DNA from: a virus
Taxonomy: Duplodnaviria > Heunggongvirae > Uroviricota > Caudoviricetes
IMG/VR virus record: IMGVR_UViG_2675903654_000008
Span: 1-11,553 of that record
Direction: 5' to 3' (one strand)
DNA: 11,553 nt
Position numbers and translations under genes: made by a program. Shown piece by piece: positions 10,541 through 10,594 of the stretch; the stretch's first letter is position 1; every line of letters begins with the position of its first letter. Under the pieces are notes generated by a model that saw only the letters and a list, made by a program, of their open reading frames with translations, made no database searches and had not been told where the DNA came from.

Positions 10541-10594
10541 TTTCTATTTCTATTTCTATTTCTATTTCTATTTCTATTTCTATTTCTATTTCTA
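10541..10594. repeat. (TTTCTA)9 hexanucleotide simple sequence repeat
   Basis: Nine perfect tandem TTTCTA units read directly from the sequence; it creates the poly-Phe-Leu track ORF at 10481-10732. Confidence 0.9.

Follow-up and report, generated by a model that had tools for sequence, protein, structure and literature searches.

Genetic setting of the repeat

The window, that is, the whole 11,553-nt stretch of viral DNA analysed here (IMG/VR record IMGVR_UViG_2675903654_000008), covers the early-right region of a mosaic lambdoid Stx1-type prophage and carries cI, O with iterons, P, NinB, a Dam methylase and NinE. An AT-rich inserted module of 2.84 kb (7939-10778), comprising a cargo gene, its upstream region, a hexanucleotide repeat and 184 bp beyond the repeat, lies to the right of ninE. 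The junctions of the module, 7938/7939 and 10778/10779, were placed by BLAST of an island-less relative (L124) against the window, and its extent is supported by the ORFs of that relative, the GC profile and the two contexts in which the downstream gene occurs. In island-less relatives, about 520 bp between ninE and the HNH gene (a 136-aa ORF and ninF; positions 2466-2987 of L124) stand where the module stands here. Among IMG/VR loci with an HNH gene 99 to 100% identical to the one in the window, 20 have the order NinE-136-aa ORF-NinF-HNH and 36 have the cargo module. The exchange of the 136-aa ORF and ninF for the cargo module is a clean module swap. The GC content falls from about 0.5 to about 0.3 near position 8000 and is at most 0.415 through the HNH gene.

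The cargo gene (8451-10223, minus strand) is antisense to the early-right operon and encodes a 590-aa protein, the sole match of which is PHROG 9230, a family of unknown function. Searches of Pfam, PADLOC, NCBIfam and the PDB gave no match for this protein, and no relative was found in the GTDB species representatives. The exact pattern of the right flank of the repeat likewise had 0 matches in the GTDB species representatives. As far as scans of these representatives reach, the module looks confined to E. coli prophages. A candidate sigma-70 promoter directed toward the cargo gene (TTGACG-18-AATAAT with TG; 10323-10352, minus strand) was identified by consensus match.

The gene that comes first beyond the right end of the island encodes an HNH endonuclease (10792-11358, plus strand) with an HNH_3 domain and a weak AP2 domain. 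It is followed by the 5′ part of ninG (11333-11426, plus strand), assigned from the annotation of relatives and cut by an insertion sequence; homology to SH2026Stx1 stops at about 11430. The remaining bases (11427-11553, boundary approximate) match annotated IS629. About 31 codons of ninG precede the IS629 end, which interrupts the gene and reaches the edge of the window (11333-11553). Within the nin region of lambdoid prophages, which are often Stx-converting, the repeat occupies the spacer between the orphan 590-aa moron gene and the gene for the HNH endonuclease. It is part of a 2.84-kb moron module carried by such prophages and not of a chromosomal gene.

The hexanucleotide tract

A regular-expression search of the window returned a perfect tract of exactly nine units, (TTTCTA)9, at 10541-10594, in agreement with the first-pass annotation, which had reported nine perfect hexamers. 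Tandem Repeats Finder describes the same feature as a repeat of period 6 with 9.8 copies, 100% matches and 0 indels at 10539-10597. An 18-nt probe of three units matches at seven overlapping positions within the tract and at none in 200 dinucleotide-preserving shuffles; the tract cannot be a chance match. With the cargo gene on its left, the tract is 318 bp from the start of the cargo ORF, and the HNH start codon (10792) is 197 bp to its right, with the ninG start at 11333. These distances bear out the earlier placement of the tract about 320 bp from the cargo start with HNH and ninG on the right. It is flanked on the left by a 16-bp sequence, GTGGTCTGTTTTAATA (10525-10540). On the right, an A/G haplotype marker at 10604 precedes a run of thymines (10605-10610; T6 in the window and T5 or T7 in other strains) that begins 11 bp after the array.

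The tract had also been called unusual, and this description holds in that only 91 of 2.9 million IMG/VR contigs carry at least four copies of the TTTCTA hexamer. Moreover, 34 of these 91 contigs (35 arrays) represent the same E. coli prophage locus as the window. A further 58 (TTTCTA)n arrays, with n of at least 4 and up to 20, occur in IMG/VR contigs that do not share the flanks (L013, L016, L018, L022, L069, L085 and others). Many of the contigs with these non-orthologous arrays are giant-virus MAGs.

Relationship to the VNTR-9 typing locus of E. coli O157

The unit of the tract and its flanks point to a locus that is well known from molecular epidemiology, which the first-pass annotation had missed. 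[quoted passage not shown] The names VNTR-9, Vhec4 and TR1 are synonyms for one locus with a repeat length of 6 bp (PMC3321953 Table 1). Thus, the PulseNet marker VNTR-9 (Hyytia-Trees 2006), TR1 (Noller 2003) and Vhec4 (Lindstedt 2003) of E. coli O157:H7 have the same 6-bp unit as the window. The O157:H7 locus also resembles the window in its 100% identical right flank with both forward-primer sites, in the 16-bp left flank and in the HNH-ninG genes downstream.

The flank comparison is direct. Rightward from the array, 100% identity with EDL933 extends to 10800 and is likewise seen with other O157:H7 genomes; on the left side, O157:H7 shares the adjoining 16 bp (10525-10540) with the window. 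The forward primers of both published assays match the window exactly on the minus strand. The TR1 forward primer (ACTGCATGATAAGCCTCAGG; PMC2246123) lies at 10670-10689 and the PulseNet VNTR-9 forward primer (PMC3321953 Table A1) at 10781-10807, where it overlaps the ribosome-binding site and the start codon of the HNH gene. As a check of identity, the published primers were located in EDL933 (L004). There, the TR1 pair (4846-5151) and the VNTR-9 pair (4738-5269) both bracket (TTTCTA)10 at 4997-5056, and the amplicon of the published primers does contain the array.

Neither reverse primer, TR1 or VNTR-9, has a match in the window at up to three mismatches. Since these sites are absent, the identity rests on orthology of the flanks and not on amplifiability. 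The window copy would not be amplified by the published primer pairs; however, this is a property of the assays and not of the locus. It has the tandem 6-bp AAATAG/CTATTT unit, its flanks are orthologous to those of the EDL933 array, and its copy number is polymorphic among strains (see below). Collectively, these data identify the tract as orthologous to VNTR-9 (O157-9, TR1 or Vhec4), the MLVA marker of E. coli O157, and it is very probable that 6-bp units are gained and lost there by slippage and tolerated in the spacer.

The locus is accordingly already known and has been a routine marker for subtyping Shiga toxin-producing E. coli since 2003-2006. The Japanese 17/18-locus scheme, which covers O157, O26 and O111, includes it as well (PMC10062581). 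Since the marker has long been in public-health typing use, the value of the tract as a discovery is small. For VNTR-9, published values are 15 alleles with 6 to 23 repeats, a diversity index of 0.90 and a null-allele proportion of 31.7% (PMC3321953), compared with a range of 3 to 23 units here. With respect to EDL933 itself, 10 perfect units were counted in the RefSeq sequence, whereas Vhec4 is given as 8 for an EDL933 stock (PMC3777172); this difference could reflect the counting convention or a difference between stocks.

The other hexamer VNTRs of the O157 MLVA panel (O157-3, -17, -19, -25, -37 and the hypervariable O157-10) are likewise short perfect 6-bp arrays. For the panel hexamers, whole-unit slippage at approximately 1e-5 to 1e-3 per generation is described, and they serve only as epidemiological markers (PMC3777172). 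They are situated at different genomic sites, whereas VNTR-9 is prophage-borne. VNTR-9 can therefore be absent (31.7% null alleles; PMC3321953) or present twice in a genome.

IS30 and two forms of the locus

In the reference strains of O157:H7, the array is bordered by a truncated IS30, whereas the window has an uninterrupted, ancestral-looking context with the cargo gene and the full spacer. Both published reverse primers are located in the IS30 beside the O157:H7 array. The VNTR-9 reverse primer is IS30 sequence that occurs in 3236 genomes and carries the annotation IS30 transposase. As the reverse primers lie in IS30 and are absent from the window, the window copy would type as a null allele. 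The IS30 that carries the reverse-primer sites is specific to the remnant prophage of O157:H7, and intact copies like that in the window are therefore invisible to the assay.

The junctions suggest how the two forms of the locus are related. In EDL933 and EC4115, the terminal repeat at the end of the truncated IS30 (...CAATTGAATCTACA) is placed directly against GTGGTCTGTTTTAATA-(TTTCTA)n. The reciprocal junction is found in strain 2014C-3011, in which the cargo gene and the left spacer extend to about 10526 and are followed by the other end of IS30 and then by tail genes. The bases GT at 10525-10526 are common to both IS30 junctions (EDL933, L004 4967-4996; strain 2014C-3011, L005 about 5277-5310) and would represent the duplicated IS30 target site. 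This arrangement fits a single insertion of IS30 at 10525/10526, on the left side of the array and 15 bp from it, which duplicated 2 bp of target sequence and would have been followed by deletions in opposite directions. A single event of this kind would explain both the O157:H7 remnant, in which the cargo side is deleted, and strain 2014C-3011, in which the VNTR and the HNH side are deleted. The O157:H7 remnant consists of IS30-array-HNH-ninG-phosphatase-Q, and the window represents the uninterrupted form.

The junctions bear on a further suggestion, that the array marks or creates a recombination junction, either as the border of the island or as a preferred site for the exchange of modules or the insertion of IS elements. 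The sequence that the window has in common with O157:H7 begins 16 bp to the left of the array, and one strain retains the left flank only, to about 10526. However, a single IS30 insertion, whose ends share the 2-bp duplication and which was followed by deletions in opposite directions, accounts for both breaks, and the apparent break in homology in O157:H7 is then due to the insertion at 10525/10526. Moreover, the real ends of the island are at 7938/7939 and 10778/10779, which places the tract 184 bp inside it, and the GC content is low on both sides and unchanged at the tract. The border of the island coincides with these limits and not with an att-like or direct-repeat structure at the array. 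Given the IS30 explanation and the BLAST-placed island limits, the junction reading, including the proposal of the first-pass annotation that the tract marks the island boundary, is largely refuted, and we consider it extremely improbable.

Strain 472 (NZ_CP018245.1) carries both forms of the locus. One copy has 12 units beside IS30 (L161 1447-1518) and the other 10+1 units in an intact island (L162 1813-1872). The reverse-primer sites are present only at the IS30-side copy and there are none at the intact-island copy. The occurrence of two kinds of copy in one genome (12 vs 10+1) bears on the reading of null alleles and on in-silico MLVA from whole-genome sequences.

Copy-number variation

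The locus is present in 524 of 5426 complete E. coli genomes. When the orthologous loci of E. coli genomes and those of IMG/VR are taken together (more than 60), the array ranges from 3 to 23 units. Direct parsing of fetched RefSeq and phage loci gave 2+1, 5, 9, 10, 13, 17 and 23 units, the lowest count being that of one genome with two perfect units and one variant. In a set of 41 parsed loci, the range is 5 to 23 units. The 34 IMG/VR loci, which were gathered through the HNH protein with the repeat playing no part in their selection, have 4 to 16 units. Variant units occur occasionally, namely a terminal TTTCTG, which is linked to G at 10604, and TTTCCA, CTTCTA and ATTCTA.

The variation is also evident from the length of the locus. 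In complete E. coli genomes, full-length matches span 535 to 655 bp compared with 571 bp in the window, and the spans fall into two length classes, each of which steps by 6 bp. Single-base indels at 10244 and 10319, in the part of the spacer next to the cargo gene, would account for the 1-bp offset between the two classes. In addition, closely related O157:H7 genomes differ in unit number, as seen from alignments that begin at different registers of the array; these registers imply roughly 4 to 10 or more units. The comparison among related strains, which had been proposed together with the tract, thus gives numbers that differ even between close O157:H7 genomes.

Variation of this type has been followed experimentally at the locus. 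During parallel passage, individual strains acquired single-unit insertions at Vhec4 at a rate of about 4e-5 per generation, and these were ascribed to slipped-strand mispairing (PMC3777172). These passage insertions and the range of 3 to 23 units among orthologues uphold the earlier expectation that the tract is hypermutable by slipped-strand mispairing.

Coding potential of the array and the T-run

Two ORFs on the plus strand cross the array. An 83-codon ORF (10481-10732), which is doubtful and probably not a gene, reads it as (Phe-Leu)9; in the frame of the second ORF (10471-10641), the array becomes (Ile-Ser)9. One possibility is that the array codes for a hydrophobic (Phe-Leu)n segment of variable length in a small membrane peptide, starting at 10481 or at the ATG at 10508, and that the T-run acts as a frameshift on/off switch, which would make the locus a contingency locus. 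The 6-bp unit never shifts the frame, and the same stop (...WKYRHP) is reached in 31 of 41 loci regardless of the number of units. The TTTCTG variant and a TTA>TTG change are synonymous in the Phe-Leu frame. In O157:H7, as read from the sequence, an in-frame ATG within the IS30 end keeps this frame open, and the T-run is polymorphic in finished genomes.

The T-run has the T6 form in 25 of the IMG/VR loci, T5 in 6 and T7 in 3. The T5 form is matched exactly in 11 of 519 complete E. coli genomes, that is, in finished sequences, and is therefore real and not a sequencing error. T5 shifts every ORF that crosses the VNTR.

Other features of the frame are difficult to reconcile with a peptide. No convincing Shine-Dalgarno sequence precedes either ATG, and the product has no match in Pfam, PHROG or NCBIfam. 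The ORF is broken in 10 of the 41 loci, mainly by T5 or T7 in place of T6, and at 35 to 60 residues the hydrophobic run does not correspond to a normal membrane segment. Annotation by PGAP is inconsistent, with the (Ile-Ser)n frame called in some genomes and nothing in others. Moreover, O157:H7 has lost the N-terminus of the ORF together with the cargo side, yet the array persists and varies. Substitutions in the Phe-Leu frame amount to three synonymous and two non-synonymous by codon count, far too few to test selection. On balance, a role of the array in coding for a switchable membrane peptide appears very unlikely.

A broader version of the same idea combines the array and the T5/T6/T7 run in one prophage contingency element. 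Its target would be either the (Phe-Leu)n peptide or early-right transcription into HNH-ninG-Q, tuned by the length of the array and switched by the T-run. If true, such an element could affect the timing of late-gene and toxin expression in Stx phages. We regard it as highly improbable, and a tuning role for a small peptide or for HNH-ninG-Q transcription is favoured by nothing found in the analysis.

Regulatory readings

The contingency loci of Haemophilus and Neisseria provide a natural comparison, since they have a hypermutable short tandem repeat beside accessory genes, as in the window. Repeat tracts upstream of promoters are exemplified by the TAAA repeat at Neisseria nadA and the 7-bp repeats at Haemophilus hmw1A. 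However, unlike at contingency loci that shift a reading frame or the spacing between -35 and -10, the 6-bp unit keeps the frame and the tract is not positioned between -35 and -10 elements. No on/off phenotype is known for the tract, and literature searches on the locus yielded no report of a function.

The array might nevertheless act as a rheostat, such that its length alters the spacing or occupancy of nucleoid proteins or regulators upstream of the cargo promoter, or the read-through into and expression of HNH-ninG-Q. Its position is compatible with this: the divergent spacer around the tract is AT-rich and 568 bp long, the HNH ATG follows 197 bp further on, and in Stx phages Q is also downstream. 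In addition, the plus-strand RNA of the tract includes a G-free, unpaired stretch of 65 nt, which is the longest G-free run in the window. However, a scan of 10100-10900 found no promoter hexamers that bracket the tract. The sole sigma-70-like site in this interval is the candidate upstream of the cargo gene (10352 to 10323, minus strand), about 190 bp away, which does not agree with the suggested role of the tract as a phase-variable promoter spacer.

The proposal that the tract forms a curved AT-tract element fails as well, because its 6-bp period is out of helical phase. A-tract curvature is phased at about 10 to 11 bp; here, successive bends are about 206 degrees apart and their vector sum is at most 1.0 unit, computed for 5 to 22 copies and 10.3 to 10.7 bp per turn. 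The tract would thus have no net curvature by which to act as a rheostat. At the level of RNA, Rfam gave no match for the tract at gathering thresholds, and no stable fold is formed, the 201 nt around the array being no more stably folded than shuffled sequences (z = 0.57). A Rho-utilisation site on the plus-strand RNA was considered and rejected as a weak candidate. With about 13% C and a C/G ratio of only about 2, the tract is unremarkable within the window and falls well below other segments in this respect. Finally, the array persists and varies in O157:H7, from which the cargo gene is missing along with the left half of the spacer. These findings make a rheostat very unlikely. In this context, it should be kept in mind that the tract lies in transcribed territory upstream of HNH-ninG-Q, where it could still have some effect on read-through or HNH expression.

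The cargo and HNH genes are divergent, and the translation-initiation region of one is an inverted copy of that of the other (GAAAACCATTA...GGAGGAA; 10238-10248 and 10766-10776, in addition to 10226-10237 and 10773-10784), with a 517-bp VNTR spacer between them. The first pair of positions forms an 11-nt perfect inverted repeat that flanks the spacer. An invertible switch operating through this repeat was considered, but no variant with the spacer in inverted orientation was seen in roughly 60 parsed loci. In addition, 245 of 245 full-length genome matches are on one strand of their record.

Probable neutral slippage in a tolerant spacer

The evidence discussed above is best accommodated by a tract whose length changes without consequence. 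The tract is devoid of self-complementarity and the array is unpaired in the fold. In the absence of self-complementarity and of a fold beyond that of shuffles, plain replication slippage is the natural mechanism. According to this model, whole 6-bp units would be gained or lost through slipped-strand mispairing at replication. With a 6-bp unit in a spacer that has no conserved reading frame or promoter geometry, such changes in length would be tolerated and polymorphism would build up. The O157:H7 strains are consistent with the model in that their array still varies after loss of the cargo gene and the N-terminus of the ORF through IS30. We infer that the array is most likely a neutral slipped-strand VNTR in the non-coding spacer of a prophage moron module, with no dedicated function.

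A second repeat array is present elsewhere in the window. It has a period of 20/39 (CATCCCTCAAAACGAGGGA...) and is situated at 4321-4398, inside a 312-codon ORF (3974-4912) for which the top phage matches are annotated as replication protein O. By form and position, these repeats fit the iterons of a lambdoid origin.
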